A stretch of DNA of 64,000 nucleotides from Candidatus Parcubacteria bacterium (lineage in GTDB: Bacteria; Patescibacteriota; Minisyncoccia; Minisyncoccales; JAGMDC01). Shown piece by piece: positions 20,843-37,736 of the stretch (within the stretch, counting starts at the first letter, position 1; each line of letters starts with the position of its first letter). Position numbers and translations under genes: made by a program. A model generated the notes under the pieces. It did no database searches and was not told the DNA's origin. It was given only the letters and a program-made list of their open reading frames with translations. The stretch covers positions 23,187 to 87,186 of the forward strand of contig JAGMAD010000006.1 in NCBI GenBank assembly GCA_023130975.1, in the 5' to 3' direction.

Positions 20843-20913
20843 GCTCCGCCAACTGGACGCTGCTGCACCCCGTAGTTCCCGCCTTAACGGGATACTACTG
20901 GGGTTAGAACCTG
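20843..20913 (-). repeat. family-1 tRNA-like 3' element, long form with 38-nt hairpin insert
   Basis: Minus reading CAGGTTCTAA[CCCCAGTAGTATCCCGTTAAGGCGGGAACTACGGGGTG]CAGCAGCGTCCAGTTGGCGGAGC; starts 5 nt after the stop of 20918..21352. Confidence 0.7.
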
Positions 20914-20917
20914 TCTT

Positions 20918-21352
20918 TTATCTAATTTTACTTAAATCACTATCAAGAATAACTGGTCTCATAGCTTCTATTTCTTCCTTGTAATTTATGTCAGGAATGG
21001 GATTTAGTAAAAATATCTTTTTACCTAAAACATAAGCAAATCCCATTTCTAAAAAAGTGTTACCTCCAATATAGTTTTTGATGCTATTTTTATCAAAATT
21101 CAAAACTAAAACCGCATCACTATTTTTTATTCTTTCTATATGCTCATCGATTAATGATTTCTTGATCTTCAATAAATCTTCTGTAAAATTATTTTTCCTC
21201 ATTGTGTGATAATCCTTCATAGATACAACATTGCCATTTACCTCAACTCCTTGCGACCAAATAAAAACAAGATGGTTTTCCTGTTCCAATCTTTTCTTAA
21301 TTTCGTAGCATTCTTTGGTAAAAAATGCTGATGAGCAAATTGTTATTTTCAT
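20918..21352 (-). CDS. nucleoside 2-deoxyribosyltransferase-like protein
   Basis: 144 aa; MKITICSSAFF..SDAVLVLN..YIGGNTFLEMGFAYVLGKKIFLL pattern of the NDT-like/YtoQ-type fold. Confidence 0.5.
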   Translation of the reverse strand: MKITICSSAFFTKECYEIKKRLEQENHLVFIWSQGVEVNGNVVSMKDYHTMRKNNFTEDLLKIKKSLIDEHIERIKNSDAVLVLNFDKNSIKNYIGGNTFLEMGFAYVLGKKIFLLNPIPDINYKEEIEAMRPVILDSDLSKIR

Positions 21353-21377
21353 AATTAAAGATTTAAACTTGATTTTT

Positions 21378-21487
21378 ATTTCGGCAGCTAGGATGAAAGC
21401 TGCCGAAAGAACTTGCCCGCCCGCTTCGCCGAAGCTTCAGCGAGGCGAGAAGGGATACCCTACCCTTCAGGGTAGGATAGTTCATAA
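21378..21487. repeat. 110-nt three-hairpin element, copy A (inverted partner at 23040-23150)
   Basis: The central 56 nt are identical to the reverse complement of copy B. The flanking hairpins differ by compensatory changes. Overlaps the last 9 codons and stop of maf. Confidence 0.85.
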
Positions 21488-22056
21488 CCGACATCAGGAA
21501 GCATTTCAACTATTATTTCCAAAGGAATACCTCTTAAAAGATTATTATAACTTCCCTCTATTCTTTGAATAAATGCCGAACTGGAATGCTTTAAGGGGTC
21601 ATAACCCAAAGCATAAGTATTAAAATGAGGGTCTTCATCAAGATATTTCTCAATTTCTTTATCTGAAAGTTTTCTCATAAATACCTCTGTTTTAACAACT
21701 CTTGAAATTATTTTATTCAAAGATGTATTAATCATATAAATTCCTGTATAAAATTGATGGTTATTTCCTGACAGGGATTGTAGCCGCTGAAATTTTTCTT
21801 CTTTTGATTTTGGCTTTTCAAGAATCTGATTATTAAAATATCCAACAGAATCCATCCCAATTACAATAGCGTCGGAATGGTTTTTAGCCACTGCTTCCGC
21901 CTTTAATCTGGAAAGATTTTTTACCAATTCTTCAGGATTATTTCTCTCCGCTTTAGATTCATCCACATTACTTCCTTCCACTTCAAAATCAATTCCTAAA
22001 TATCCAAATGCTTCTTTGCGGTATGGAGAAGTTGTGGCTAAAATTAGTTTGGTCAT
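21460..22056 (-). CDS. maf: Maf-like nucleoside triphosphate pyrophosphatase
   Basis: 198 aa; LILATTSPYRKEAFGYLGIDFEV.., GIYMIN.., typical Maf. Confidence 0.85.
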   Translation of the reverse strand: MTKLILATTSPYRKEAFGYLGIDFEVEGSNVDESKAERNNPEELVKNLSRLKAEAVAKNHSDAIVIGMDSVGYFNNQILEKPKSKEEKFQRLQSLSGNNHQFYTGIYMINTSLNKIISRVVKTEVFMRKLSDKEIEKYLDEDPHFNTYALGYDPLKHSSSAFIQRIEGSYNNLLRGIPLEIIVEMLPDVGYELSYPEG

Positions 22057-22067
22057 AAAAATAAATT

Positions 22068-22163
22068 AATGAATTTTATCTAAATCTTTATTTATAACTA
22101 TTGGCTGCATTACTTTAATCTCATCTCTATAAAGCATATACTGGCACAAATTACAATTTTCAT
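22068..22163 (-). pseudogene. internally deleted remnant of an NDT-like paralog
   Basis: ATG at 22161-22163 gives MKIVICAS (compare MKITICSS of 20918..21352). A second frame gives YRDEIKVMQPIVINKDLDKIH* (compare KEEIEAMRPVILDSDLSKIR*). The middle of the gene is missing. Confidence 0.6.
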
Positions 22164-22178
22164 ATTGCTTTATCTTAC

Positions 22179-22206
22179 AAAAAAATTGCCTTCTTGGCAA
22201 TTTTTT
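22179..22206 (-). terminator. terminator AAAAAATTGCC-ttctt-GGCAATTTTTT
   Basis: Perfect palindrome with A-run and T-run. Confidence 0.7.
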
Positions 22207-22210
22207 ATCG

Positions 22211-22240
22211 GCTCCCCCAACTGGACGCTATTAGAACCTG
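22211..22240 (-). repeat. family-1 tRNA-like 3' element
   Basis: Minus reading CAGGTTCTAATAGCGTCCAGTTGGGGGAGC, between the stop of 22314..22937 and its terminator. Confidence 0.7.
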
Positions 22241-22313
22241 TTTAAGGGAAATTTAAATAAAAAAGTGGGGGGCAGAAAGAAATCTCATGATTTTTCCTTG
22301 CCTCCCTTAGGAA

Positions 22314-22937
22314 TTATGGCTCTACCTTTACACTCCAAGTAATCTCTTCTTTACGAGCGCCCGGCTCAAGCTTCACTTTATCCTGGTCAACCATACTTTT
22401 AAGTTTTTTTTCGTTGACATCTGTATTTATCTTCTGGCTCATCACCTTTGGTAATTCTTCCTCAGAAATACCAAGGCCCATCAGAGCTTTTTTTATGGTT
22501 TTTTCCAGAATCTCTTCGGAAATAGTAATTCCCTTTTTGGTGACAAAGCCAACTGGAACGGAGACAGAAACAATCAGTGTTTCTCTGACTATGGCTGAAT
22601 AACTAATCTGCAAAGATTGTCTTAGCAAATCTCTGTCATAACTCACTTTCTCACTAGGAAATGTAGTAAGAACAAAATTGTCCTTTTCTGAGACAAGACC
22701 TCGCAATCCCTTGGTTTCTTGGGCTATTTTAAGTATTTGTTCTCTGTCGAGAAGCCGAACCCCATCCAATCTGTCTATTTCACATTTGATTGTATAGTAT
22801 TTTCTAGCCAGTCCATAAAACTCCTCGATAGTTCTACGCAAGATATCCAGCTCAACATCTGGCTCTCTTCTTAATTGAACCCCCTCAATATGAGTCGGGA
22901 AAGTACCAAATCTCTCTTTTTTTACCATTTTCTTCAC
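22314..22937 (-). CDS. hypothetical protein
   Basis: 207 aa; SD-like AGAGGTGA upstream; no family recognised. Confidence 0.55.
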   Translation of the reverse strand: MKKMVKKERFGTFPTHIEGVQLRREPDVELDILRRTIEEFYGLARKYYTIKCEIDRLDGVRLLDREQILKIAQETKGLRGLVSEKDNFVLTTFPSEKVSYDRDLLRQSLQISYSAIVRETLIVSVSVPVGFVTKKGITISEEILEKTIKKALMGLGISEEELPKVMSQKINTDVNEKKLKSMVDQDKVKLEPGARKEEITWSVKVEP

Positions 22938-22980
22938 CTCTTTTTATATTATGTGCTGTATATTTCTAATCTTAGTTTCT

Positions 22981-23021
22981 TAAACAAAAAAGTCAAGCCC
23001 GAGGCGCAAGACGCCTCGGGC
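22981..23021 (-). terminator. strong intrinsic terminator
   Basis: GCCCGAGGCG-tcttg-CGCCTCGGGC followed by TTGACTTTTTTG on the minus strand. Confidence 0.8.
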
Positions 23022-23039
23022 AAAGAAGTGATAACTCAA

Positions 23040-23150
23040 TTATGAACTACCCTGCCCTAAAGGGCAGGGTATCCCTTCTCGCCTCGCTGAAGCTTCGGCG
23101 AAGCGGGCGGGCAAGTTCTTTCGGCGGTGGAGTATTCCCGCCGCCGAAAT
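23040..23150. repeat. 111-nt three-hairpin element, copy B
   Basis: Reverse complement of copy A. On the minus strand it starts 3 nt after the stop of 23154..23468 and is followed by the 22981-23021 terminator. Confidence 0.85.
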
Positions 23151-23153
23151 AGA

Positions 23154-23468
23154 TTAATATTCTAATTTTACTCCAAGTTTATCTGCTAAAGATTGGATCC
23201 ATTTTTCATGACGATTAAGTTGATTTGATACAGCTACATATTCTGTTTTTAAGTCACTAACCGCTTTAACAAGTTTATCCACTGAGTTTGTTAAGTTTTG
23301 AATAGATCCTCTAAGAGCAATAAGCTCTTGTTTTGTTTCCTTTCTCAATAAATCAAACTCTTCAAGGGTTACTAATTTTGAACTTAAATTATTTAAATCC
23401 TCTTTGGTGGTTGTGTTCTGAAACTTCTCATCCAAATATTCAATTAATTCTTTATAATCTTTGTCCAT
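23154..23468 (-). CDS. coiled-coil hypothetical protein
   Basis: 104 aa from ATG 23468 (track uses GTG 23471); heptad-rich; TTGACA-N16-TATAAT sits 7 nt upstream of the ATG. Confidence 0.55.
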   Translation of the reverse strand: MDKDYKELIEYLDEKFQNTTTKEDLNNLSSKLVTLEEFDLLRKETKQELIALRGSIQNLTNSVDKLVKAVSDLKTEYVAVSNQLNRHEKWIQSLADKLGVKLEY

Positions 23469-23508
23469 CACTTTAATTATAAAACCTCAAAAACTAATGT
23501 CAAATTCA

Positions 23509-23538
23509 GCTCCCCCAACTAAATACTGTTAGAACCTG
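23509..23538 (-). repeat. family-1 tRNA-like 3' element (diverged)
   Basis: Minus reading CAGGTTCTAACAGTATTTAGTTGGGGGAGC, 9 nt after the stop of 23548..23769. Confidence 0.6.
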
Positions 23539-23547
23539 CTTAGCAAT

Positions 23548-23769
23548 CTAAAGTTCTTCTTTTTGAAACTTCTCTTCCTGGATTTGGTCTGACCTCCTGA
23601 TAATTTTTATTAATTCGGCAACATGTTCTTTTTCGTCATCTCTAATATGACCCAATATCTTTTTAACTTCTTTATTATCAGTTTCATCTATATGTTCCTG
23701 ATATTGATTAATAGCTTGTAGTTCTCCTATTAAATCTTCTCTTAAGTTTTTTAGAGTTTTATTGTCCAT
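23548..23769 (-). CDS. small ferritin-like (EncFtn-like) protein
   Basis: 73 aa; IGELQAINQYQEHI..ILGHIRDDEKEHVAELIKIIRR parallels the ExxA..Y....HNxNEExEH..xLxWIRR pattern of encapsulated-ferritin-type proteins. Confidence 0.5.
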   Translation of the reverse strand: MDNKTLKNLREDLIGELQAINQYQEHIDETDNKEVKKILGHIRDDEKEHVAELIKIIRRSDQIQEEKFQKEEL

Positions 23770-23842
23770 ATTTTTCTAATCTCTTTTATTTATAATATTT
23801 GACCTTTGTATTTTTATTCTACCAAAGAATCGCTTTTTCGCC

Positions 23843-23877
23843 AATCCGTCAGCTGGCGGAGCAGAGGGGATTTTTTT
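23843..23877 (+). terminator. plus-strand hairpin AATCC..GGATT plus T7 enclosing a family-1-like box
   Basis: AATCCGTCAGCTGGCGGAGCAGAGGGGATTTTTTT. Confidence 0.45.
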
Positions 23878-23919
23878 ACTAAACTTTTGAAATATTTTTT
23901 AAATATGATATATTTAATT

Positions 23920-23961
23920 AAGAACCTGACTTCGTCAGAACCTTGTTTTTCGCTAACGCTC
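23920..23961 (+). repeat. family-2 element (dispersed copy)
   Basis: AAGAACCTGACTTCGTCAGAACCTTG..TTCGCTAACGCTC. Confidence 0.6.
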
Positions 23962-24003
23962 AAAATAAGAGGAAATAGCTTTAGAAAAAATAATCAACTA
24001 ATT

Positions 24004-24228
24004 ATGTTCTTCGTAGATGGCAAATTTAATATTACTCTGGTTTTACTTGGTATAATCTTAGCTTTTTATTTGTGGTATACTTTTGCTATTGTCTATCATT
24101 TAATCAGATTCGGAGTAGGAACCAAACCTAAAACCATCGCCTTAATTTTCTTTGTGGGCTCTGTTTTCTTATTTTCTCTGGCAATAATTATTTATACCCA
24201 AATTAATTGGGCAACTATTTTGCAATAA
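24004..24228 (+). CDS. small 2-TM membrane protein
   Basis: 74 aa from ATG 24004; the track N-terminal extension (23806-) crosses repeats and a terminator. Confidence 0.5.
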   Translation: MFFVDGKFNITLVLLGIILAFYLWYTFAIVYHLIRFGVGTKPKTIALIFFVGSVFLFSLAIIIYTQINWATILQ

Positions 24229-24236
24229 ATTATTTT

Positions 24237-24755
24237 ATGTCTATCTTTACTTCCTCAAAAAATAGTTTTGAAGGACAACTCCCGGGAGAAACCACAATTT
24301 TGTTAACCAGAAAGCATTGGCTTAATTTATTCGTTCCGCTGTTTATTAATCTGCTGCTGATTTTATTACCTTTTGTGGTTTATTTTATCATAAATTCCTT
24401 TAGCTGGTACGATAAGATTTCCTCTCTTTATTGGTTCCTGGCAACACTACTTCTGTTAATTTTATGGAATTTAGCTTTTTATAACATTATGATTTATGCT
24501 CTAAATACTGTTTTAGTAACTAACAAAAGAGTAATCGAAAATAAGCAAGAAGGTCTGTTTAAACACAGAATTAACGAATTAGAATTAGATAAGGTTCAGG
24601 ACATATCAATAAAGGTTTTCGGTCTTTTAGCAGAGTTGTTGAGTTTTGGAAATTTAGAGATTCAAAGCGCTGGAGCCAAAGTTAAGTTCTCTTTTACTCA
24701 ACTGCCTCATCCCCAAAAGATAAAAAATACTATTATGAAGTTAAAAATTAGTTGA
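24237..24755 (+). CDS. bacterial PH domain (bPH_2/YdbS-like) membrane protein
   Basis: 172 aa from ATG 24237; 2 TM then VLVTNKRVIENKQEGLFKHRINELELDKVQDISI. Confidence 0.6.
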   Translation: MSIFTSSKNSFEGQLPGETTILLTRKHWLNLFVPLFINLLLILLPFVVYFIINSFSWYDKISSLYWFLATLLLLILWNLAFYNIMIYALNTVLVTNKRVIENKQEGLFKHRINELELDKVQDISIKVFGLLAELLSFGNLEIQSAGAKVKFSFTQLPHPQKIKNTIMKLKIS

Positions 24756-24835
24756 ATCTCAGCAGAATTAAAAACTGATTATGAAAAAAAGCCCAAGAAT
24801 GGGCTTAATTTCATTTATTTGATTTACTGAATTTC

Positions 24836-25033
24836 TTAAAGGCGGGTTACGTTTGTTGCGTTAGGACCCTTTGCAGAATCGGTCTTATCGAAAGACACTC
24901 TATCACCTACTTTTAACTCTTCAAAGGTTACACCCTTAAGTTCGTTGCTGTGAAAGAATAAATCTTTCTCTTCACCATCAACGGTAATAAATCCAAATCC
25001 TTTACCCGTAAGGTTTTTAATTGTTCCTTCCAT
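24836..25033 (-). CDS. cold-shock domain protein (CspA family)
   Basis: 65 aa; KGFGFI RNP-1 and FFHSNE RNP-2-like motifs. Confidence 0.92.
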   Translation of the reverse strand: MEGTIKNLTGKGFGFITVDGEEKDLFFHSNELKGVTFEELKVGDRVSFDKTDSAKGPNATNVTRL

Positions 25034-25045
25034 GATTGTAATTTA

Positions 25046-25100
25046 CCCTATTAAATAATTCCGCCAAAGGCGAAATTGCCCCAAAGGGCATTTAACAGGG
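25046..25100 (-). promoter_or_regulatory. structured 5' UTR of the csp gene (outer helix enclosing two hairpins)
   Basis: Outer CCCTATTAAAT/ATTTAACAGGG; inner CCGCC-aaa-GGCG and TGCCC-caaa-GGGCA; ends 13 nt before the ATG. Confidence 0.5.
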
Positions 25101-25248
25101 TGAAGATTAATTAATTTTAGTTCCCTGAATAAACTCGACTAAATTTTGATTAAGGCAACTATCTATGAATAATATTAACATTTAAAAAATAATTAGTCAA
25201 CCAAAAAACCACCTTTCCGCCAACTGGCGGAGACGAGACGGTAAATTT

Positions 25249-25278
25249 ACTCCCCCAACTGGACGTTATTAGAACCTG
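25249..25278 (-). repeat. family-1 tRNA-like 3' element
   Basis: Minus reading CAGGTTCTAATAACGTCCAGTTGGGGGAGT after the stop of 25303..25527; a second partial box CCGCCAGTTGGCGGA lies at 25216-25232. Confidence 0.7.
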
Positions 25279-25302
25279 TTTGATGAAAATTTAGAAAAAA
25301 CT

Positions 25303-25527
25303 CTAAAAGAAAGCGTATAATACAGCCATTGCAAGCGTGATAAGTAGTGTTATGCCAATCCATGCTTTAGCGCCAGCCTCACGTATTCCGTATCCAACCC
25401 AAAGAAGTATTGGAATTAAATACAAAGGCACTACGTCAACTGGTTTGTGAACTACATTCTTAAAAAATATCACCAACAGCAATGGAAGAAAAAATGCAAC
25501 TATTAATATTTTTGTGTCATCTTTCAT
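25303..25527 (-). CDS. small 2-3 TM membrane protein
   Basis: 74 aa, hydrophobic; TATAAT plus AAAGGTCGGG box upstream. Confidence 0.55.
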   Translation of the reverse strand: MKDDTKILIVAFFLPLLLVIFFKNVVHKPVDVVPLYLIPILLWVGYGIREAGAKAWIGITLLITLAMAVLYAFF

Positions 25528-25586
25528 TTTTATTATCTTCTTTTTTAAATAGTTTAGACCCGACCTTTATCAAATTATACCAAATT

Positions 25587-25613
25587 AAAAACCTGAGACA
25601 AACAATTCTCAGG
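25587..25613 (-). terminator. intrinsic terminator CCTGAGA/TCTCAGG plus T-run
   Basis: Minus reading CCTGAGAattgtttgTCTCAGGTTTTT. Confidence 0.7.
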
Positions 25614-25713
25614 TCCTTGCTCCGCCAACACTAACATCAAAATCTTTAAGCAATCCTCTATAAAGATTTTCACTCCCGCATTTTAGACATTTTTCGTTTG
25701 TTATATTTCTACT

Positions 25714-25893
25714 CTATTTTACAATATACTTCAATAAACTATAACAAATAAAAGTAATAACAGCCACCAACAATCCTGTAATTGTCCAATGTAATTCTGT
25801 CGTGGTTCCTATTAAAACTCCTAAAAATCCGCCGAGCCCCGCCGCAATTCCGACTATAATTGGTATTTTGTTCATTTTATTATCTTGCTCCAT
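25714..25893 (-). CDS. 59-aa membrane protein
   Basis: MEQDNKMNKIPIIVGIAAGLGGFLGVLIGTTTELHWTITGLLVAVITFICYSLLKYIVK; below track cutoff; followed by a terminator. Confidence 0.45.
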   Translation of the reverse strand: MEQDNKMNKIPIIVGIAAGLGGFLGVLIGTTTELHWTITGLLVAVITFICYSLLKYIVK

Positions 25894-25950
25894 ATTTATA
25901 CTTTAATTTTACCTCGACCTTTACTTCATTGTCAAATTCTTCATTAAATT

Positions 25951-26109
25951 TTACGCTCCGCTGAGGCATATCCGCTTTTTGAGAAAACTATCTCGGACAA
26001 CTAAATTAAAAGTTCCGAATTTCATTTTACGGATGTATTCGATTAATTTAATCTCGGCCGGGTAGAGTTCGTCTAACACTTTGTCTTGCGCATTGATTAC
26101 TGCTTTCAT
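25951..26109 (-). CDS. 52-aa YezD/DUF2292-like small protein
   Basis: MKAVINAQDKVLDELYPAEIKLIEYIRKMKFGTFNLVVRDSF...; below track cutoff. Confidence 0.4.
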   Translation of the reverse strand: MKAVINAQDKVLDELYPAEIKLIEYIRKMKFGTFNLVVRDSFLKKRICLSGA

Positions 26110-26196
26110 ATCTATTATAACTTAAAGATTCTTTTTAGAAAAGTAAAAAAATTTATTAAAAACTGCGCAGTGACGGACTTTTTTTGTTTTAATTAA

Positions 26197-26226
26197 AAAC
26201 CACCTCAAATTTAATTGGGGTGGTTT
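26197..26226 (-). terminator. terminator AAACCACC/GGTGGTTT
   Basis: Hairpin plus T-run downstream of 26299..26847. Confidence 0.5.
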
Positions 26227-28935: not shown

Positions 28936-28950
28936 CTGTATAACTTTGAA

Positions 28951-31135: not shown

Positions 31136-32374
31136 TTACCTTCTTCTCTTCTTGTGAGTTGTTTTTCTTGTCTTTAGATACACTTCTACTAACTTGCCTA
31201 ATGCGATTGCAGAAAACACGATGATAAGGGGTAAAAAGGACTTTATAAGCTCTTTAACCCTGGGTTTAATGAATGATGCTTGCACTGGTCCTAATTTAGC
31301 GTTTGGATTATCAAGAGAAATTTCTACCATACTATCCGTTTTTGCTCCAATCGCCATCCTAGCTTTTGGAGATAAATCTATATCCCTTTTTGTACTCACA
31401 TTAGGCCCATAATCTACGGGTTCTACTATAACTGATTTTCCATTTTCTATGTTTGTCACTTTTATTCTTTGATTTCTCAACCACGCTTTACTCCAAGGTC
31501 CTGTCGAATGGTATGGAGGCCATCTCATCGCACAGTAATAAGGTATTTCTTCATCGACTACTCGACCATAAAGATCTTCCCGATATAAAGATAACGCTAC
31601 TTTATTCCATTGTCTTTTTTGTTTGGGCTCATTCATCCAATTATCGAAATCTTTCTTTAGTTGCGGATTCTTCTTAAAGTATTCTGTAAAGAACTCTTCG
31701 TATGACATTTTTATTCCTATAGGAAGGCGTTCATTATAGAATTTTTTTCTGAGTTTTTTGTCTATCCATATATCGTCCTTGCCTCCGAATTCACTGCATT
31801 TTCCCCACACTGTTTCGCCTTTCAATACGTCCATTGCCTTATTTTCAAAGTAGATTGTTATGCTTTTAGATTTGCCTGAAGAGTGTCTGATGGTTATGGT
31901 AACCTTTTCGTTTGCGCCCTGATCTTCTCTTTTAGGAACGATATATTCACCTTCCATAGGTTCACCCACTGTAAGTTCTTTGGGAAGTCTAAGGATTCCA
32001 ATTTTAGGTGTCCGCTCATAGTCATAATCACCGGAACACATTATTTCAAAAGAAATTTTAGAAGTGCTCTTTCCGTATACGGGAAGCTTATCAGGCTTGG
32101 CAGATAAATATTTTATGCAATAGCCTTCTTGTTGGATAAGACAGGCATCAGAATTAGTATTGGGACTGCATGGATCACAAGGATTACTATCCATGAGATC
32201 TTCATCAAAATCATACTCGCCATCTTTATCACTGTCTGCTAAAGGATCCAATGAATCTAGAACGCAACCCGGGATCGGTTTAGCGGCAACAAGCGACGAA
32301 CAAACAACTGCAATCATCAATGTCATTACGATAACCACTATCATAAGGACTTTTTTCATTTTTTTTCTTTTCAC
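31136..32374 (-). CDS. secreted RlpA-like double-psi beta-barrel protein with C-terminal TM anchor
   Basis: 412 aa with signal peptide. Asp-rich Ca-binding-like DSDKDGEYDFDED. YYCAMRW..RIKVTNIENGKSVIVEPVDYGPN..DIDLSPKA is DPBB/RlpA-like. Confidence 0.6.
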   Translation of the reverse strand: MKRKKMKKVLMIVVIVMTLMIAVVCSSLVAAKPIPGCVLDSLDPLADSDKDGEYDFDEDLMDSNPCDPCSPNTNSDACLIQQEGYCIKYLSAKPDKLPVYGKSTSKISFEIMCSGDYDYERTPKIGILRLPKELTVGEPMEGEYIVPKREDQGANEKVTITIRHSSGKSKSITIYFENKAMDVLKGETVWGKCSEFGGKDDIWIDKKLRKKFYNERLPIGIKMSYEEFFTEYFKKNPQLKKDFDNWMNEPKQKRQWNKVALSLYREDLYGRVVDEEIPYYCAMRWPPYHSTGPWSKAWLRNQRIKVTNIENGKSVIVEPVDYGPNVSTKRDIDLSPKARMAIGAKTDSMVEISLDNPNAKLGPVQASFIKPRVKELIKSFLPLIIVFSAIALGKLVEVYLKTRKTTHKKRRR

Positions 32375-32552
32375 CTCCTTTCTTTTTTCAATCCGTCGTT
32401 AAAACCTTTCCTCAATATTTCATTTAGATAATCTATCAATATATCATTGAAAAAGTTCTGTTCTTTTTCTATCAAATTTCACAAACTCTGTCAAATTTTC
32501 CGCCTAAAAAACCGCCTCTTTGGCGATTTTTTAGGCCTTTCGGTCTCCTGAA

Positions 32553-32585
32553 CGCCTCACTACTCTGCTCCCGAGTTCAAACCTT
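32553..32585 (-). repeat. tRNA 3'-end-plus-trailer-like fragment
   Basis: Minus reading GGTTTGAACTCGGGAGCAGAGTAGTGAGGCG; compare genuine tRNA-Asn GGTTCGAATCCTACCCGCAGAGCAGAGTAGCGAAAG. Confidence 0.55.
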
Positions 32586-32643
32586 AAACGAACTTTAGAG
32601 GACTTTGGGTATATGGCAATGGTGAAGGAAAAACTGAACGAAA

Positions 32644-32886
32644 TCAAGATATCCTGCCGTAATTGCGGGATATTTTTATTTCCTTCGCTTTCCTAAAAAT
32701 TAGAATTGCTCCGCCAACTGGACGCTGCTCGCGCCTGCTTGATAAAAAATTTAGAGGAATAAAATACAATTTTGGATTTTTAAACAATAGCTCTGAATCC
32801 AAAGCTAACCATTTGGTCAATCTATCCAGAATTATTAAACCCAAAGCAAGAAATACTAAAAATCTTGCTCTATTTAGGTATTTCAT
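32644..32886 (-). pseudogene. LspA-like (signal peptidase II) N-terminal fragment interrupted by a family-1 element
   Basis: FLVFLALGLIILDRLTKWLAL matches the LspA N-terminal motif (compare B. subtilis ADQLTKWLV). The frame then runs through the repeat box (RREQRPVGGA) and stops, and the rest of lspA is absent. Confidence 0.35.
32708..32737 (-). repeat. family-1 element (variant 5' box)
   Basis: Minus reading CAGGCGCGAGCAGCGTCCAGTTGGCGGAGC. Confidence 0.65.
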
Positions 32887-32896
32887 CTTCAGGCAT

Positions 32897-34267
32897 TTAC
32901 TCGCCTTCAGGCGGTTTCTTTTCTAGTAATTGTTTGCAAGCTGGTTCCTGGGGATTTTGAGTACAATATTGTTTGCATTCCTCAGGACTAGTGCATTTCC
33001 CTTCTAATTCTGGGGGTACGCCTTCAGGCGGTTTCTCTTCGCCTTCAGGCGGTTTCTTTTCTAGTAATTGTTTGCAAGCTGGTTCCTGGGGATTTTGAGT
33101 ACAATATTGTTTGCATTCCTCAGGACTAGTGCATTTCCCTTCTAATTCTGGGGGTATTAGCATTTCTGGAGGCTTTCCTTCTGGGGACATGTCCTCTGGA
33201 GGTAGTCCCATCTCACCTTCTGAAGGCTTTGGCGTATATTTTTCAAAACAATTCTTTATTTTCTCACCAACTTCAGGACTAGGCATAAAGGTACCAGTTT
33301 GAATTTTCTCCAAAACTTCTTCTCCTACGGTTGACTTTATACATTCTAAAACTTCTGGCGGCGCTTGCTTTAATCCCTCCTGTAATTGCTGTATGCCTTC
33401 TTTCGTTTTCTGAATTTCTTCCTCAGGAATTAAATCGTGCTCCTTGGCAAAATTAAAACAAACTTCTTGATTAGCCGGGTTGTTGCAAAAAGCCTCACAT
33501 TCTTCTTTACTCTGACAACCACCTGGTCCTTGGCCACCGGTTTTTAAAAACATTTCTTTCTCCTCTGGCGTCATTAATCCAGCTTTAGAGGCAAAATCAG
33601 CACATTCTTGAAAATGAATCTTTTGAGCACAGTAAGCCTCGCATTCCTCTTTAGCCTGACAGCCGCCGGGGCTCTCCCCTTTTGCCATTAAAGACACTGC
33701 TTTCATTCCCCGGCTGCACTCTTCTGAAGATAGTATCCCTATCTTACAAGCATACGAGAAGCACTCTCGCATATGTTTCCGCTGTGAACAATAAGCATCA
33801 CACTTTTCCTTGGTTCTACAGTTTCCCGGGAAAGGAATTCCAGCCAGCATAGCCTTTCTTACCAGTCTTGCTTCCCTCGCTTCTTCTGGAGGAATAATTC
33901 CGATTTTTTCAGCATAATCTATACATTCTTCTATCACAGTCGGATTTTTACAATAAGCATCACATTCTTCTTTACCTTTACATCCACCAGGGCTTTCCAC
34001 CCCTTCAGCTAAGGCCTTTACTACTTTTTTAGCTACTTCTAATTCTTCTGGAGTCATTAAGTTGTGAGCTTCAGCAAAAGATACACATTCTTCAATGTTT
34101 TCCCAACTATCGCAATAAGCCTGACATTCATCTTCATTCTGGCAATTTCCTAATTCCTCCACCGGATAATTTATTTCATCAGCAAAAACCAGAAAACCCG
34201 CTAAAAGTCCAGCACCAAGAATAATAAATAGAGGGAGTAAATTGATATTGTCTTTAATTCTAAGCAT
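32897..34267 (-). CDS. secreted Cys-rich repeat protein (about 8 copies of a C-x4-6-EC-x2-YC..EC..FA module)
   Basis: 456 aa; signal anchor; modules such as GGCKGKEECDAYCKNPTVIEECIDYA; Pro/Glu-rich linkers. Confidence 0.65.
   Translation of the reverse strand: MLRIKDNINLLPLFIILGAGLLAGFLVFADEINYPVEELGNCQNEDECQAYCDSWENIEECVSFAEAHNLMTPEELEVAKKVVKALAEGVESPGGCKGKEECDAYCKNPTVIEECIDYAEKIGIIPPEEAREARLVRKAMLAGIPFPGNCRTKEKCDAYCSQRKHMRECFSYACKIGILSSEECSRGMKAVSLMAKGESPGGCQAKEECEAYCAQKIHFQECADFASKAGLMTPEEKEMFLKTGGQGPGGCQSKEECEAFCNNPANQEVCFNFAKEHDLIPEEEIQKTKEGIQQLQEGLKQAPPEVLECIKSTVGEEVLEKIQTGTFMPSPEVGEKIKNCFEKYTPKPSEGEMGLPPEDMSPEGKPPEMLIPPELEGKCTSPEECKQYCTQNPQEPACKQLLEKKPPEGEEKPPEGVPPELEGKCTSPEECKQYCTQNPQEPACKQLLEKKPPEGE
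32902..33155 (-). repeat. in-frame tandem duplication, period 138 bp (116 bp identical)
   Basis: 32902-33017 is identical to 33040-33155; duplicates PPELEGKCTSPEECKQYCTQNPQEPACKQLLEKKPPEGE. Confidence 0.9.
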
Positions 34268-34270
34268 AAA

Positions 34271-34513
34271 TTATTCAAAAGGATTTATTTTTAATCCTTC
34301 AAAAGGATTGATTTTGGCCTTAAAAGGATTGGTCTGGGGAATTTTTTCTGCCGGATTCCGGACCATTTCATAAATTTTTTCACCAAAAGTTTTTGCCTCT
34401 TCTTTTTCCAAGGGCTCAATGGTAATTTCGGGGTATTTCTGGAAAAAATAAAAAGCACCTCCAGTAACCAATAAAACAATGATGATAAAAATTATAATAA
34501 CTTTTGGCTTCAT
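34271..34513 (-). CDS. small membrane-anchored protein
   Basis: 80 aa; N-terminal TM; C-terminal INPFEGLKINPFE repeat. Confidence 0.5.
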   Translation of the reverse strand: MKPKVIIIFIIIVLLVTGGAFYFFQKYPEITIEPLEKEEAKTFGEKIYEMVRNPAEKIPQTNPFKAKINPFEGLKINPFE

Positions 34514-34662
34514 ATTTTTATTATACTAAATTCTAGAAAAGAAAGAAACTGTGGATAATTTATTATTCAACTTTCCATAATAATTAAAATTTTTGTATTC
34601 ATAATTCTATTCTACCAAAAAACCGCCTAACTGAAAAGGCAACGGAAGAAAAGGTAGATTCT

Positions 34663-34848
34663 CTATTTTTTAACAGAAAGAAAAAAGATGATAAATAGTA
34701 CAAATCCAACCCCAAGACCAATATACATACCAGGAACAAGTTTATCTGTTAAGAAACCTATTCCCATACCAATGAAAAGACCAGCTGGAATAAAAAGAGC
34801 ACTTATTCCTCTTTTGTCTTTTTTTTCTTTAATTTCTTGTTCTTCCAT
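34663..34848 (-). CDS. small 2-TM membrane protein
   Basis: 61 aa, hydrophobic. Confidence 0.45.
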   Translation of the reverse strand: MEEQEIKEKKDKRGISALFIPAGLFIGMGIGFLTDKLVPGMYIGLGVGFVLFIIFFLSVKK

Positions 34849-34892
34849 ATTTTTAATTATGATTTATTTTAAGACCTTTTTTTTATTCTATC

Positions 34893-34918
34893 AAAACACC
34901 ACCTCCATTACAAGGTGG
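34893..34918 (-). terminator. terminator CCACCT/AGGTGG plus T-run
   Basis: Minus reading CCACCTtgtaatggAGGTGGtgTTTTG. Confidence 0.6.
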
Positions 34919-34927
34919 CATAAATTT

Positions 34928-34957
34928 GCTCTGCCAGCGGGACGCTGTCAGAACCTG
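34928..34957 (-). repeat. family-1 tRNA-like 3' element
   Basis: Minus reading CAGGTTCTGACAGCGTCCCGCTGGCAGAGC, 14 nt after the stop of the hydrolase gene. Confidence 0.65.
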
Positions 34958-34970
34958 TTTAGTGGGTAGT

Positions 34971-35480
34971 TTAGCTTAAAATATACCTCTCAAGCTTGGA
35001 AAAATTAATGGTATCAAAATGGTCATCTCCTTCAATCTCAATCAACTTACCATTAACATAGTTGGCTAAATCCTCTCCGTGTTTCAATGGTACCCAAGGG
35101 TTTTTTGTTTGATTTAGAATAAAGAATTCTTCGCAATTCTGCTTGATTTTCTGCCAATCAAAATCTTGTTCAAAAAAATTATTCGTTGGCTTAGAACCGA
35201 ATTTCCTGATTGGTGTTGCAATTAAAACACATCTCTTTATCTTCTCATCTATCTTCTCTAAATATTTTAAAATAGCTGTGCCACCTAAACTATGACCAGC
35301 AAGAACCGAATTATCATCGGGGTCAAAATCTTCAATAATACTTACCCACTGTTCTTTTTTAGAATGTTTCGTGTTGGGCATATCTGGCACAATAACCTTA
35401 AGACCTAACTTTTCTAATCTCTCCTTTTCTTCTAAAAACCAGTGCTCTTCTGGATTACTTTCCCATCCATGAAGTATTTG
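34971..35480 (-). CDS. serine hydrolase (YdeN/RBBP9, alpha/beta fold) lacking a canonical start codon
   Basis: GHSLGG nucleophile elbow. The open frame extends 30 codons above the track GTG start and encodes the conserved ILHGWESNPEEHWF. It is bounded by TAA at 35481-35483 with no ATG/GTG/TTG. Confidence 0.55.
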   Translation of the reverse strand, partial: QILHGWESNPEEHWFLEEKERLEKLGLKVIVPDMPNTKHSKKEQWVSIIEDFDPDDNSVLAGHSLGGTAILKYLEKIDEKIKRCVLIATPIRKFGSKPTNNFFEQDFDWQKIKQNCEEFFILNQTKNPWVPLKHGEDLANYVNGKLIEIEGDDHFDTINFSKLERYILS

Positions 35481-35531
35481 TTATAATAAAAAGCAGAGAA
35501 AGGTCGATAACATCTAACTTTTTATTGTTTT

Positions 35532-36221
35532 ATGAAGAACAAATATTTATTCATTATTCTTGCTTTAGTTATTGCTATCCTGTTAATTAACTTCAAGGTG
35601 TTTCTTGACGGTATAACAACGCAAAGAATGTTGGCTAAGGTCTTGGTTGAAAAGCTAGCTAAGAGCACTAAGTGTATGACGATCCAGGACGGTTCACTAT
35701 ATACCTCTGATGGCGAGCTGATCAACACAGGTTATAGCCAGTGGGGCTATAACTACCAGGCGCATATGTTTAATGGCATGTATTGTGATTATCATCCAAT
35801 GTATCGTCCTGGGGGCGCCTATTACGAGTGGTGCCAAGACAATTATGGAAATGATAGATTAATGATGAAGTGGAATAATGCCTGGTTGTCTAACAAAGAC
35901 TGTAATGCTGACGGGCTTTTAGATCGTTATTATGGATACGACAGTTACATTGGCTCTGGCGCTTGGTTGACAAACCACACGAGTGGCATGTACCAGGAAG
36001 GCGAGCAGTCCTGTTCCTGGAATTATTTTGTTAAGATTGTCGCCGCGCCCAGTGACGCTGAAAAAGTAGGTAATGTTTGGCATTTAGCCGATGGCACAGA
36101 ATTAGGAGAGGTTATCTGGGGATCATTTGCTATAGTCCAAAGCATATACAATGATACCTGTACAGGTGAACATGGGATTGAGTATTTGAGCCCAGCTGGT
36201 CCTGGTTTCGGCAAGTTCTAA
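35532..36221 (+). CDS. secreted Trp/Tyr-rich hypothetical protein
   Basis: 229 aa; signal anchor; visibly more GC-rich than its neighbours; only + gene in a long minus-strand run. Confidence 0.6.
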   Translation: MKNKYLFIILALVIAILLINFKVFLDGITTQRMLAKVLVEKLAKSTKCMTIQDGSLYTSDGELINTGYSQWGYNYQAHMFNGMYCDYHPMYRPGGAYYEWCQDNYGNDRLMMKWNNAWLSNKDCNADGLLDRYYGYDSYIGSGAWLTNHTSGMYQEGEQSCSWNYFVKIVAAPSDAEKVGNVWHLADGTELGEVIWGSFAIVQSIYNDTCTGEHGIEYLSPAGPGFGKF

Positions 36222-36264
36222 TCCGATCTAACCCGCCTCTTAATTTATTAGATCTTGTTCGGTT

Positions 36265-36297
36265 GTGGCTCGGGTTAAAACCCGGGCCACTCTTTTA
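36265..36297 (+). terminator. terminator GTGGCTCGGG/CCCGGGCCAC
   Basis: 10-bp stem (one G.T) followed by TCTTTT; between convergent genes. Confidence 0.65.
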
Positions 36298-36359
36298 ACA
36301 AAAATCAGTTCGTATCGGAAAATGCTGGCTCCGAGGGACGGACGATGTTAAAATTTGTT

Positions 36360-36557
36360 TTATTTAGATTCTAGAGGAATAAGTATTAATAAGACTAAAT
36401 ATAAAATAATCCCAATACCATTGGCAAAAATTAGTAATACAAAAAATATTCTTACCAACAAAGGATCGATTCCTAAATGTTTAGCTAAACCGCCACAAAC
36501 TCCTGCAATCATTCTATTATCTCTTGAACGATAAACTTTTTTTATTGGTTCTTCCAT
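36360..36557 (-). CDS. PspC domain small membrane protein
   Basis: MEEPIKKVYRSRDNRMIAGVCGGLAKHLGIDPLLVRIFFVLL; ATG 36557 preferred over track TTG 36584. Confidence 0.75.
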   Translation of the reverse strand: MEEPIKKVYRSRDNRMIAGVCGGLAKHLGIDPLLVRIFFVLLIFANGIGIILYLVLLILIPLESK

Positions 36558-36640
36558 AATTTTAATTATTTTATTAATTATCAACCTTTATTCTATTTTA
36601 CCAAAAAACCGCCTCTTTGGCGAGACGGCTTCGCTGCTCT

Positions 36641-36672
36641 GCTCCCCCTACAGAACGCATTTAGAACAGTTG
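36641..36672 (-). repeat. family-1 element with tRNA-trailer-like tail
   Basis: Minus reading CAACTGTTCTAAATGCGTTCTGTAGGGGGAGC, then AGAGCAGCGAAGCC as found after the tRNA-Asn 3' end. Confidence 0.55.
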
Positions 36673-36793
36673 ATTGGAAGAAAATAAGGGAAGAATTAGA
36701 GGTTTTTAGGATAAAAATTCCTGTTTCTGAAATGATATCAGCTTACAGTATAAAAAAGTAATGAAAAATAGAACTGACCCTATTTTTTCCTGT

Positions 36794-37546
36794 TTAATTT
36801 AATTCAAGCTCTGCAACAATGGGCAAATGGTCGGATATATCGGTATCTATGGTTTTAAAACTTTTGCATTTTAGCCTCTCCGAAATAAAAATATAATCAA
36901 GCTTCCATTTCAATTCTGTTTCCTCAAATCCTTTATAAGAAAATGGATGTTTCGTCCAAGTTGGATTATGTTCTTTATCTATATATGAAACTTCCTTGTC
37001 TATTTTTTTAATGACTTCTGATTTAAAGTGAGAATTAAAGTCACCCGCTATAATCATTGGTTGCTTGTCTTTTATTATTTCAATTACTTTTTCGGCTTCC
37101 TCAATTTTTATTGGCATGTCCGCGAAAGCAGGCGAATAAGTAAAATGTGTAGTAAAAACATAAAGCTTCTGTCCATTTATTTCAACTTTCACCTCTACCA
37201 AGTTTCTTGACTGTCTTTCGTAATCGTCTGTCCAATCCAAAGGTTTTAAATAATAATGGATATTGGAAGAAAGGACAGAAAATTTAGAAAAAATAGCATT
37301 GCCAAAAAAAATCTCCCTATCTCTTTCTTTTTTGTAAGTTATGGGAGCAATAATTCCTCTAAAATCAGGAAAAGCGTTTTCAAATTCGTGAAAAACATCA
37401 ATATTATTTAGCCCGAACTTAGGAAAATTTTTGGTTACTTCTTGAAGAACAAAAATATCTGGATTTTGACCTTTAATCAAATCAATTTCTTTTTTCCAAT
37501 TCTTGCCATACCAAAGATTAAAAGTAAGAAATCTAAAAGTAGTCAT
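36794..37546 (-). CDS. endonuclease/exonuclease/phosphatase (EEP) family protein
   Basis: 250 aa; FLTFNLWYG, DIFVLQEV, GDFN, SDHLPIVAELE. Confidence 0.85.
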   Translation of the reverse strand: MTTFRFLTFNLWYGKNWKKEIDLIKGQNPDIFVLQEVTKNFPKFGLNNIDVFHEFENAFPDFRGIIAPITYKKERDREIFFGNAIFSKFSVLSSNIHYYLKPLDWTDDYERQSRNLVEVKVEINGQKLYVFTTHFTYSPAFADMPIKIEEAEKVIEIIKDKQPMIIAGDFNSHFKSEVIKKIDKEVSYIDKEHNPTWTKHPFSYKGFEETELKWKLDYIFISERLKCKSFKTIDTDISDHLPIVAELELN

Positions 37547-37560
37547 GTCCTTATTCTACC

Positions 37561-37587
37561 AAAAAATCGCCTTTTTGGCGATTTTTT
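37561..37587. terminator. perfect palindromic terminator AAAAAATCGCC-ttttt-GGCGATTTTTT
   Basis: Read directly; immediately upstream (minus sense) of the TAGAAT promoter of 36794..37546. Confidence 0.6.
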
Positions 37588-37736
37588 TTGCATGTTCCGA
37601 GGAACGGACGACGTTCGAACCTATTTTATGACCACAAAAGAGTATTTTTACCTCCCAATTTTAGCCAGCCCATAAATTATACTGCAATTCTGATAAAATT
37701 TGACCAGACCATTCTTCTTTGATAGTATGAGATAAT

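Follow-up and report, generated by a model that had tools for sequence, protein, structure and literature searches.

What is the short tRNA-like repeat that recurs behind the genes of this ultra-small Patescibacteria bacterium, and does it act in RNA or in DNA? In the window (the whole 64-kb stretch of DNA analysed here), a scan for CGTCCAGTTGGSGGAGC with ≤3 mismatches returned six matches, all on the minus strand and starting at 20843, 22211, 25249, 32708, 34928 and 36641, compared with 0.02 expected from shuffles. At the same threshold, the full 30-mer gave two matches versus 0 expected. The repeats are 30-38 bases long and sit at the joints of small swappable cassettes in a hypervariable region. 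They are probably, on balance, att-type partial-tRNA DNA recombination sites that delimit cassettes in tRNA-seeded islands, rather than RNA signals. Among the three origins offered by a first-pass annotation (a MITE/SINE-like element, RNase P or RNase Z processing signals, and scars of tRNA-targeted integration), the last fits best, in view of shared trailers, breakpoints at copies, a displaced trailer and copies found only downstream of the tRNA.

Table 1. Repeat copies, anchoring tRNA gene and variable islands in the window
Feature	Position	Strand	Remarks
Variable island 2, BipA to UPF0182	13900..28950	-	Holds copies 25619 to 20843
Repeat copy	20843..20913	-	4 nt after stop of 144-aa gene; found by nhmmer and CGTCCAGTTGGSGGAGC scan
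Canonical copy, CAGGTTCTAATAGCGTCCAGTTGGGGGAGC	22211..22240	-	73 nt after stop of 207-aa gene
Copy, diverged centre (CGTCC to TATTT)	23509..23538	-	9 nt after stop of EncFtn-like gene
Weak candidate copy	23848	+	Treated as unproven
Canonical copy	25249..25278	-	After 74-aa gene
Very weak copy	25619..25640	-	Only second half recognisable; treated as unproven
Variable island 1, tRNA-Asn to BipA	30800..39156	-	Relatives with 76-97% identical RpoD have other content here
Weak copy (...CTAGTTCGCGGAGC)	30814..30845	-	Distal island edge, just upstream of BipA promoter; absent from first-pass annotation
tRNA-Asn 3'-end fragment, internal deletion, plus trailer AGAGTAGTGA	32553..32585	-	Orthologous to L146 19781-19867
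Copy, diverged first half	32708..32737	-	Inside 80-aa ORF, 159 nt after 456-aa gene
Copy ending GGCAGAGC	34928..34957	-	Ending like acceptor end of window's own tRNA-Asn
Diverged copy, subtype CGTCCGTyCCTCGGAGC	36325..36350	-	9 nt after stop of PspC-domain gene
Diverged copy	36641..36672	-	Followed by tRNA-Asn-type trailer AGAGCAGCGAA and terminator
Diverged copy, TAGGTTCGAACGTCGTCCGTTCCTCGGAAC	37594..37623	-	Supported by nhmmer and tRNA-end alignment
tRNA-Asn(GUU) with group I intron (~39197-39420)	39157..39454	-	Island anchor; 3' end and trailer imitated by repeat

All six copies that had been rated as good (20843, 22211, 23509, 25249, 32708 and 34928) were recovered in place on the minus strand, copy 23509 with an nhmmer match of E=1e-7. 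Of the diverged copies, 36641 and 37594 were supported by the nhmmer or CGTCCAGTTGGSGGAGC scans and by alignment to the tRNA end, and 36325 and 32553 by aligning them with relatives and with the tRNA end. The proposed spacing of 5-70 nt behind a stop codon is close to that of five good copies (4, 73, 9, 24 and 13 nt), but not to that of copy 32708, which lies 159 nt behind the 456-aa gene. This copy is indeed inside an ORF, although the label "LspA-like" given to it has no Pfam support. The ORF is possibly a truncated gene, and ~49 nt around the copy (32707-32755) are similar to the 3' end of the cassette with the 74-aa gene. The hairpin reported inside copy 20843-20913 is present, but as a 36-nt perfect hairpin plus 5 nt instead of a 38-nt hairpin; it occurs once in the window and parts the two halves at the point of the 5-nt T-loop insertion described below. 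Copies have no similarity to each other beyond ~40 nt.

Rather than being confined to this region, a pattern that the first-pass annotation had considered, the motif is widespread across Patescibacteria contigs. The consensus (CCAyT)AAACAGGTTCTAA-nnn-CGTCCAGTTGG-sGGAGC was found in ~25 unrelated contigs, in which a 21-nt non-tRNA core is near-invariant amid otherwise unrelated flanks. The conserved left part, AAACAGGTTCTAA-nnnCG-TCCAGTTG, resembles a tRNA T-arm lengthened by five bases; the final 6-8 bases read sGGAGC in the lineage of the window and GCGCAC in a sister lineage. The repeat itself is no tRNA and matched no Rfam family. Its likeness to tRNA is real, but differs from the one proposed, in that the motif runs colinear over its whole length with the tRNA-Asn 3' end. 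MAFFT aligned 11 repeat copies from four genomes with the 3' parts of five tRNA-Asn genes, leaving a single 5-nt gap after GGTTCxAA; a twelfth row, copy 32553, represents an internally deleted tRNA-end fragment. The shared order is T-stem 5' strand and T-loop, TCC, acceptor 3' strand, discriminator and trailer, interrupted in the repeat by the 5-nt insertion. The second half, previously regarded as a D-arm mimic, corresponds to the tRNA 3' end; a sister type carries the same core followed by GGGCGCACAAA, the end and trailer of tRNA-Arg, and its ending GGGCGCAC(AAA), being the tRNA-Arg acceptor end, cannot be a D-arm. In L132 and L140 (L numbers denote loci from other genomes), the sister type stands directly downstream of tRNA-Arg. 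One and the same core thus occurs in two repeat types tied to different tRNAs, while the final bases and the following sequence agree with the island-seeding tRNA, Asn or Arg, in its acceptor end and trailer.

Trailers common to repeats and tRNA-Asn are AGAG(T/C)AGCGAA in the window, L144 and L157, and CCCAGCAGA in L147; the string AGAG(C/T)AG(C/T)GA was correctly reported to follow both two copies and the tRNA-Asn end of the window. The first 10 nt of copy 37594 equal the T-arm of the same tRNA, and a shared Exo_endo_phos block begins 8 nt later. Other window copies bear the acceptor-end variants GGGGGAGC and GGCGGAGC, which belong to the tRNA-Asn of L121 and L134 and not to that of the window (GCAGAGC), as import of cassettes along with their site would predict. 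The 5-nt insertion and altered centre imply that a working tRNA could not be rebuilt from a repeat. Because the middle of the repeat (the nnnCG insertion and AGTT) is foreign to tRNA, the copies are more than plain duplicates of a tRNA end, which counts against their being att sites.

Position and strand are strongly biased. An nhmmer search (E<0.01) of nine tRNA-Asn loci gave 17 matches, every one of them downstream of the tRNA and on the tRNA strand; the 93 kb upstream had none (p=3e-5), and the subset of six loci fetched only via RpoD gave 8 downstream versus 0 upstream. Orientation is strictly single, and in L132 and L157 the repeat occupies the exact tRNA 3' end. Relatives with RpoD identities of 97%, 94%, 81%, 80%, 77% and 76% keep dnaG-rpoD-tRNA-Asn, and the genes beyond differ; in L156, BipA, a helicase and UPF0182 all lie within a few kb downstream of the tRNA.

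Comparison with L146, the closest mosaic relative, showed that copies mark the start or end of shared blocks. The 74-aa gene and copy 25249 are orthologous to L146 20173-20505 (~95% identical), with similarity reaching no further than the copy's 3' end. The joint at L146 19781 is a composite, its left side matching that of copy 32553 and its right side that of copy 34928, and the block 34914-34604, just 3' of copy 34928, stands behind a different copy in L146. In L157, the tRNA is followed by foreign sequence: two cassettes part it from its native-type trailer AGAGTAGCGAAATAC, now 0.8 kb away directly behind the second repeat, and a third copy bears the trailer type of the L156 tRNA.

A recombination site would account for these arrangements if each cassette comprised a terminator hairpin, a TGnTAnAAT promoter, one or few ORFs and the repeat. 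Cassettes would insert at the extreme tRNA 3' end or at an existing repeat, the conserved left part of the repeat would travel with the cassette, and every insertion would move the older trailer and older cassettes outward; repeated insertion may thereby build a same-strand array and a hypervariable island, in which the repeats could additionally act as shuffling substrates. Insertion would presumably be driven by a site-specific recombinase. L155 and L144 have large serine recombinase genes next to tRNA-Asn 3' ends, complete or partial, and these recombinases are putative enzymes for the repeat; L047 has the junction sequence of L155, with no recombinase gene confirmed there. Several findings count against recombination sites. 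The 64-kb window lacks an integrase gene, as do the regions up to 10 kb from the arrays in L146, L147 and L157, the motif is absent from IMG/VR viral contigs, and neither an excised or circular cassette nor a clean empty-versus-filled pair for one cassette was seen. Some rearrangements do not involve a repeat, for example a 1.9-kb indel inside the Exo_endo_phos cassette and a joint ~20 nt upstream of copy 32708.

Whether the breakpoint lies before or after the terminator varies with the comparison, which could equally reflect homologous recombination between short shared modules. The repeat might accordingly be a pseudo-tRNA-end fragment linked to terminators and, once DNA has been taken up, passively copied and shuffled by general recombination (RecA-type or illegitimate), with no dedicated recombinase; its conservation would then reflect recent spread, and its function would be limited to supplying homology and accompanying a terminator. 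Repeat, trailer, CGCC-aaaga-GGCG terminator and TGGTAGAAT promoter recur in varied combinations, most arrays have no nearby integrase, and fragments and truncated genes adjoin copies. This explanation is nevertheless rather unlikely: a near-invariant 21-nt core in ~25 contigs and two tRNA types is hard to obtain without selection or a specific mechanism, and the strict orientation and exact tRNA 3'-end placement look site-specific. A role in RNA is more doubtful still. The repeat would serve in the 3' UTR of the mRNA before it as a linear recognition sequence or as a mimic of a tRNA end, read by an RNA-binding protein or an RNase (RNase P, RNase Z and the CCA-adding enzyme are the proposed readers), and would define or protect the 3' ends of mRNAs in front of the terminator. 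The motif lies 0-90 nt behind the stop of a same-strand ORF in 17 of ~24 independent loci, a placement that an RNA role would predict likewise and that counts against recombination sites; a terminator-like hairpin and T-run follow most copies, and the motif is like the T-loop and acceptor end read by tRNA enzymes. However, RNAalifold found no structure in 28 copies and upstream sequence that could pair with the acceptor-like end is not in excess, so that a minihelix cannot form, and Rfam gave no match. Copy 22211 lies beyond the terminator that belongs to its 207-aa gene, and a second terminator and a promoter come after it. Neither the confinement to sequence downstream of the tRNA (with 0 copies in 3' UTRs of the window's other ~45 kb) nor the trailer shared with the neighbouring tRNA is expected of an RNA signal, which leaves the RNase P/Z proposal unsupported.

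The MITE/SINE-like element was rejected, as the copies have neither terminal inverted repeats nor target duplications and differ beyond their short common stretch. REP elements are short, extragenic and often at gene 3' ends, as is the repeat, all copies are on one strand, and the window holds an IS200-like Y1 (HUH) transposase gene (4173-4859; Y1_Tnp, E=6e-11) such as accompanies REP/RAYT systems. Spread of a REP- or MITE-like element by such a transposase, with replication direction setting the orientation, is still highly improbable, because the motif is not palindromic, no copy flanks or lies near the Y1 gene, and that gene has a different palindrome of its own, CAGAGAACTGTTCTCTG, on its flanks and nowhere else. 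Colinearity with the tRNA and the shared trailers would also be left unexplained.

Among known systems, integron arrays (attI/attC) resemble the present ones in their short, mostly single-gene cassettes in one orientation with a repeat just after the ORF, one fixed anchor site, boundaries at the repeat end and content highly variable between relatives. In contrast to integrons, there is no IntI gene here, cassettes have their own promoters and the anchor is a tRNA 3' end; moreover, the repeat is a conserved sequence with no hairpin, whereas attC has a conserved structure and variable sequence. Large serine recombinases offer a second parallel, in that family members adjoin tRNA-Asn 3' ends in related loci and that, as in attP/attB half-sites, both partners (repeat and tRNA) share the 8-bp GGTTCxAA, its distance to the common inner sequence being exactly 5 bp longer in the repeat than in the tRNA. 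This offset matches the shift of the zinc-ribbon-domain motif between attP and attB (Rutherford et al. 2013, PMC3783163). Unlike serine recombinase att sites, no inverted partner half-site was found beside the copies, the element junctions in L155/L047 and L144 differ in sequence from the repeat, and same-orientation arrays are not expected since these enzymes do not recombine product sites. Tycheposon islands of Prochlorococcus contain partial-tRNA attachment-site repeats in tRNA-seeded islands (bioRxiv 10.1101/2020.12.28.424599). As in such islands, those described here begin at a tRNA gene, partial tRNA copies are dispersed through them on the strand of the tRNA, neighbouring elements are parted by a partial tRNA only, newer insertions probably displace older ones outward, content varies between close relatives, and the hosts are streamlined with few classical mobile elements. 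They differ in that the repeat is not a plain copy of a tRNA end (conserved 5-nt insertion, altered centre), the units are 0.4-2 kb with one or few genes and without their own integrase, and Asn and Arg types carry the same core in Patescibacteria hosts.

All six good copies of the repeat proposed by the first-pass annotation were recovered in place on the minus strand of the window, a piece of AT-rich chromosome (~33% G+C) whose closest RpoD relatives carry the labels Minisyncoccales, Nealsonbacteria or Patescibacteria. The second half of the motif (≤3 mismatches) occurs six times in the window versus 0.02 expected, and the whole 30-mer twice versus 0 expected; a profile search added copies 23509 and 37594 (minus-strand copies are named by their start positions). 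The two halves are separated by a spacer of 3 nt. An insertion between the halves of copy 20843 is indeed present, but consists of a 36-nt unique hairpin plus 5 nt rather than of a 38-nt hairpin as originally described. The placement of good copies close behind stop codons was borne out, five of them starting 4–73 nt past one, and behind most copies come a hairpin with a T-run and, after it, the TGnTAnAAT promoter-like box of the next gene. Most genes of this region lie on the minus strand, and the region encodes common small bacterial genes: Maf, CspA, BipA, PspC, an EncFtn-like protein, hydrolases and many hypotheticals. Between copy 22211 and Maf there is a short ORF (MKIVICASICFIEMRLK*) that resembles the N-terminus of a 144-aa nucleoside-deoxyribosyltransferase-like gene (starting MKITICSSAFF...) and is thus likely a gene fragment that a rearrangement has left behind. 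A pair of GC-rich 86-nt inverted repeats (95% complementary) encloses a 1.55-kb segment with Maf, copy 22211 and a 207-aa gene. This segment could be invertible or transposable, and the inverted repeat is probably another of the repeat families listed in the first-pass annotation.

No cloverleaf was found at the motif copies, ARAGORN calling only tRNA-Ser and tRNA-Leu in the window. Rfam, including RF00005, returned nothing at the copies either at gathering score or at E ≤ 10, aside from an RNAI match at 22177–22255 (E = 0.23) that was set aside as chance level. A T-stem is not formable, as the expected 3′ strand (AGCGT/CGTCC) is not complementary to CAGG, and an upstream acceptor 5′ strand able to pair with the acceptor-like end showed no enrichment. 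RNAalifold predicted only 2 trivial pairs on 28 copies of the tRNA-Asn-type repeat (type 1). Candidate stems of its sister, the tRNA-Arg-type repeat (type 2), namely CCAACT/AGTTGG and ACGC/GCGT, were rejected on inspection of alignment A2 as mismatched and devoid of compensatory change. The repeat is neither an RNA structure nor a known family, and annotation should treat such 'tRNA-like' strings with caution, as neither tRNA genes nor RNA motifs. Readings as an integron attC, a dif/Xer site, a DNA uptake sequence, a promoter, a CRISPR solo repeat or a coding peptide were all rejected: dyad symmetry is absent; the hexamers are not spaced as in a promoter; the copies are too few and too clustered for uptake sequences; there are no arrays with spacer periodicity; and indel lengths are not multiples of three.

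The relationship to tRNA became clear from a MAFFT alignment (A5) with the 3′ parts of five tRNA-Asn genes, in which 11 copies from four genomes were found to be colinear with the tRNA-Asn 3′ part, all the way from the T-stem 5′ strand into the trailer; the twelfth repeat row (w32553) is instead a piece of the tRNA end that has lost an internal stretch. The colinear segments are, in order, xAGGTTCxAA (T-stem 5′ strand and start of the T-loop), TCC, ..GGAGC, which corresponds to the acceptor 3′ strand and discriminator, and the trailer. The repeat departs from tRNA-Asn by one 5-nt insertion after GGTTCxAA and 4–5 substitutions. The trailer AGAG(T/C)AGCGAA lies behind tRNA-Asn in the window and in two related loci (L144 and L146), and also behind copies 36641, 32553 and L157-7223; trailer CCCAGCAGA lies behind the tRNA of L147 and behind two copies in that locus. 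Type 2 relates to tRNA-Arg as type 1 does to tRNA-Asn: the tRNA-Arg sequence in L132 is GGCGGTTCGAATCCGTCCGGGCGCGCaaatttt and the repeat sequence CGCGGTTCTAAAAGCGTCCAGTTGGGCGCACaaaaaattt, and the arrays in L132 and L140 begin directly after tRNA-Arg. The D-arm mimicry suggested earlier did not hold, because the repeat derives from a tRNA 3′ end; the AGTTGG string is a coincidence, and the Arg type is without the GAGC that a D-arm requires. Acceptor-end variants of the window copies (GGGGGAGC and GGCGGAGC) match the tRNA-Asn of other genomes and not the window's own, which would fit cassettes imported together with their site.

The intron-split tRNA-Asn of the window was overlooked by ARAGORN at default settings. 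The same program called this arrangement in relatives; the intron-bearing tRNA-Asn is present in L146, L147, L155 and L157, and tRNA-Asn without an intron in L144 and L156. The immediate neighbors of the window tRNA-Asn are rpoD and a gene for a 222-aa HTH protein, in which we read a LAGLIDADG-like stretch ('GIAMYFAEGSK') and which probably belongs with the group I intron; its homologs occupy the same place in L147 and L157. Upstream of this ORF lies a 67-nt duplicate of the rpoD–tRNA spacer and the first bases of the tRNA, and it looks as if the 222-aa gene had been inserted between rpoD and the tRNA.

All 17 copies identified with an nhmmer profile (E < 0.01) in nine tRNA-Asn-containing loci are located downstream of tRNA-Asn on the same strand, and none in 93 kb upstream (p = 3e-5); the six loci fetched through RpoD homologs only gave 8 copies downstream versus 0 upstream. 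Relatives with RpoD identities of 97%, 94%, 81%, 80%, 77% and 76% all retain dnaG–rpoD–tRNA-Asn and the upstream synteny, but have different genes behind tRNA-Asn. L156 represents a compact state, in which tRNA-Asn is followed by BipA, a helicase and UPF0182; therefore, the window contains two inserted islands, both with motif copies and accessory genes, e.g., a SocA/Panacea antitoxin-like gene and a PemK-family toxin gene. Downstream of the tRNA, the window and L146 have only cassette-sized blocks in common, the limits of which fall at copies: an Exo_endo_phos block starts 8 nt past copy 37594, a block with a 61-aa gene starts 14 nt past copy 34928, and a 74-aa gene with its copy is ~95% identical to L146, the similarity stopping at the 3′ end of the copy (alignment A3). 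At 19781 in L146, a joint links what is the left side of copy 32553 in the window to what is the right side of copy 34928 there (alignment A4). The tRNA of L157 ends in ...GCAGAGC and is followed by foreign sequence, and the native-type trailer AGAGTAGCGAAATAC is found 0.8 kb further on, directly behind the second repeat; we read this layout as the insertion of two cassettes at the very 3′ end of the tRNA. Behind the third L157 copy lies the trailer type of the L156 tRNA. A second variable spot, not linked to the repeat, is a glycosyltransferase cluster upstream of dnaG that the window and L144 have and L146 and L147 lack.

A metagenome scan with the pattern GGTTCTAA-N1-6-CGTCCAGTTGG matched 31 stretches, ~24 of which are independent AT-rich contigs with unrelated flanks. 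About 5 of 110 matches in GTDB-representative genomes are genuine, originating from MAGs labelled Paceibacterota or Saccharibacteria; the others were dismissed, mostly as chance matches in GC-rich genomes, plus one Streptococcus gene. Conservation extends outside the positions fixed by the search (AAAC-A upstream and sGGAGC downstream), a same-strand ORF stops 0–90 nt upstream of the motif in most loci, and several loci include additional same-strand copies. GC-richer contigs harbor the type 2 repeat, which has the common core GGTTCTAA-AAGCG-TCCAGTTG and a different end, GGCGCACAAA. The full motif had no match in viral contigs, where six half-motif matches in GC-rich contigs were discarded as chance, and no prior description of the repeat in Patescibacteria was found in the literature searched. 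A Bro-N-domain gene (METKI.IFKG..) precedes a repeat copy in four of four tRNA-Arg-type contigs (L129, L131, L132 and L140), and the genes between copies in loci of this type also include DUF1016, ParB-like, methyltransferase and IS3-like genes, so that their content looks like defense or mobile genes. A conserved module of ~90 nt (..GGTGTGGTGAGAATCTACC..GCCTTCGGGCAACTC joined to TTCGAATCC..GGAGC) is located behind a motif copy and terminator in four lineages and is missing from the window. It terminates in an exact tRNA-Asn 3′ end and is able to close an acceptor-like stem; no two-sided covariation and no ARAGORN or Rfam match were found for it. A c-di-GMP-I riboswitch (77 bits) is present on a small motif-bearing contig and is not adjacent to the motif.

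Positions of features in the window and, where a locus is named, in related loci
Feature	Position	Strand	Description
tRNA-Asn(GUU), split	39157–39454	−	group I intron at ~39197–39420, anticodon loop (Rfam RF00028, 84 bits)
222-aa ORF	39486–40154	−	between rpoD and tRNA; N-terminal HTH (Pfam: HTH only)
67-nt duplicate	40213–40279		
Island 1	39.1–30.8 kb		tRNA-Asn to BipA
Island 2	28.9–13.9 kb		BipA to UPF0182
Glycosyltransferase cluster	43400–48400		
144-aa gene	20918–21352		
Short ORF	~22094–22147	−	
86-nt inverted repeats	21402–21487 / 23040–23125		
Y1 (HUH) transposase gene	4173–4859	−	IS200-like
Palindrome at Y1 gene	4153–4169, 4646–4662, 4869–4885		
~90-nt module	L047 593–690; L115/L125/L127/L139; L146 16884–16973; L157 13202–13295		
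c-di-GMP-I riboswitch	L115 164–250	−	
Element at tRNA-Asn 3′ end	L155 11539–21242		
1.8-kb element	L144 16588–18393		

The repeat resembles att sites made of partial tRNAs in its homology to a tRNA 3′ segment (the Arg type matching the tRNA-Arg end), in the location of the copies downstream of the cognate tRNA in direct orientation, and in a strain-variable inter-repeat region with junctions at the repeats. An integrase, either in the element or beside the site, was found neither in the window nor in L146, L147 and L157. Large serine recombinases occur only in L144 and L155, where their genes adjoin complete or partial tRNA-Asn 3′ ends. The integrated element of L155, directly at the tRNA-Asn 3′ end, includes a large serine recombinase (the last codons of which overlap the tRNA end), Bro-N, an MmeI-type restriction-modification enzyme and an HTH_17 protein. 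The junction sequence of this element, AGATTAGAACACCTGTT, is found again behind a pseudo-tRNA end in L047, a 3-kb contig in which no recombinase gene was confirmed. The L144 element contains a large serine recombinase gene only, is bounded by terminal inverted repeats (48 of 50 nt matching), and sits within the loop of a long hairpin composed of a partial tRNA-Asn 3′ end and trailer; just past the element, 65 nt of the region after the genuine tRNA recur as a direct repeat. The ZD-binding motif of large serine recombinases is shifted by 5 bp between attP-type and attB-type half-sites (PMC3783163), and in the repeat GGTTCxAA is placed exactly 5 nt further outward than in the tRNA (A5), in agreement with this offset. 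Several points speak against a simple serine-integrase model: the geometry derived from the L155 junction (GGAGC-AGA-TTAGAACACCTGTT) gives inconsistent spacings; the copies are without an inverted partner half-site (of 41 copies, only 4 have an inverted TTAGAACC in the 150 nt downstream, none of them at a symmetric distance); arrays of product sites are not expected; and the junctions of both recombinase elements are unlike the repeat. A serine recombinase acting on the repeat may be taken as a lead only. The Y1 transposase gene of the window was rejected as a partner, since it is bracketed by its own, different palindrome, CAGAGAACTGTTCTCTG (three sites, all there, 0.08 expected), with which it forms an IS200- or RAYT-like unit that has no connection to the repeat.

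The comparative anatomy of these loci suggests how the arrays may be built. A cassette would run from a terminator hairpin through a promoter and one or a few ORFs to the repeat, whose left 21 nt would be the cassette-borne arm; the resident site would supply the last 6–8 nt and the trailer. A one-strand array would then grow as cassettes enter at the tRNA end or at a repeat already in place, and the terminator would be part of the next unit or of the tRNA trailer that was displaced, an anatomy that would explain the position of the repeat 'between stop codon and terminator'. We tentatively entertain the possibility that Patescibacteria carry an integron-like cassette system, in which the extreme 3′ end of tRNA-Asn or tRNA-Arg would be the fixed acceptor site, a ~38-nt 'expanded T-loop' mimic would be the cassette site, and a recombinase encoded elsewhere would act in trans to capture and shuffle mini-cassettes that bring a promoter and no integrase. 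This enzyme might be a serine recombinase reading the 5-bp offset. The attC sites of integrons are imperfect palindromes (R′′-L′′...L′-R′) that fold as hairpins, and the IntI gene lies beside attI; the 30–40-nt site studied here showed no inverted-repeat structure, and no IntI tyrosine recombinase gene was found beside the tRNA, whose neighbors are rpoD and the gene for the 222-aa HTH protein.

Shuffling of a passive pseudo-tRNA and terminator unit by general recombination would account for the variable breakpoints and the missing integrase, yet it leaves unexplained a near-invariant non-tRNA core common to two tRNA-specific types, and we consider it rather doubtful. A 3′-UTR signal acting in RNA, such as the RNase P/Z processing signal initially put forward, is unlikely: the closeness of the copies to stop codons is what it explains, and the missing fold, the confinement to tRNA-downstream islands and the common trailers are what it does not. 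A REP or MITE element is highly improbable and fails on anatomy. REP/RAYT systems have a palindromic repeat flanking the Y1 transposase gene, and here the motif is not palindromic and the palindrome on either side of the Y1 gene is a different sequence; MITEs have terminal inverted repeats and a target-site duplication, and no inverted ends were found at the copies, whose flanks are unrelated.

The genomes of Patescibacteria are tiny, these bacteria depend on other cells, and their acquisition of accessory and defense genes is poorly understood. The repeat provides a sequence handle on a hotspot that varies even at 94–97% RpoD identity, and points to a mechanism of cassette type with tRNA-Asn and tRNA-Arg as its anchors. 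A dedicated recombinase, if found, would make a compact new site-and-enzyme pair and a means of mapping flexible gene pools in metagenomes. The closest known situation is that of the Prochlorococcus tycheposons, tRNA-seeded islands with scattered partial tRNAs (bioRxiv 10.1101/2020.12.28.424599), and the cassette anatomy of the arrays recalls integrons. Unlike in both of these systems, the site is a modified tRNA end with an expanded T-loop from which no tRNA could be rebuilt, the units are promoter-bearing mini-cassettes that lack an integrase, one core serves the Asn and the Arg lineages, and the hosts are Patescibacteria.
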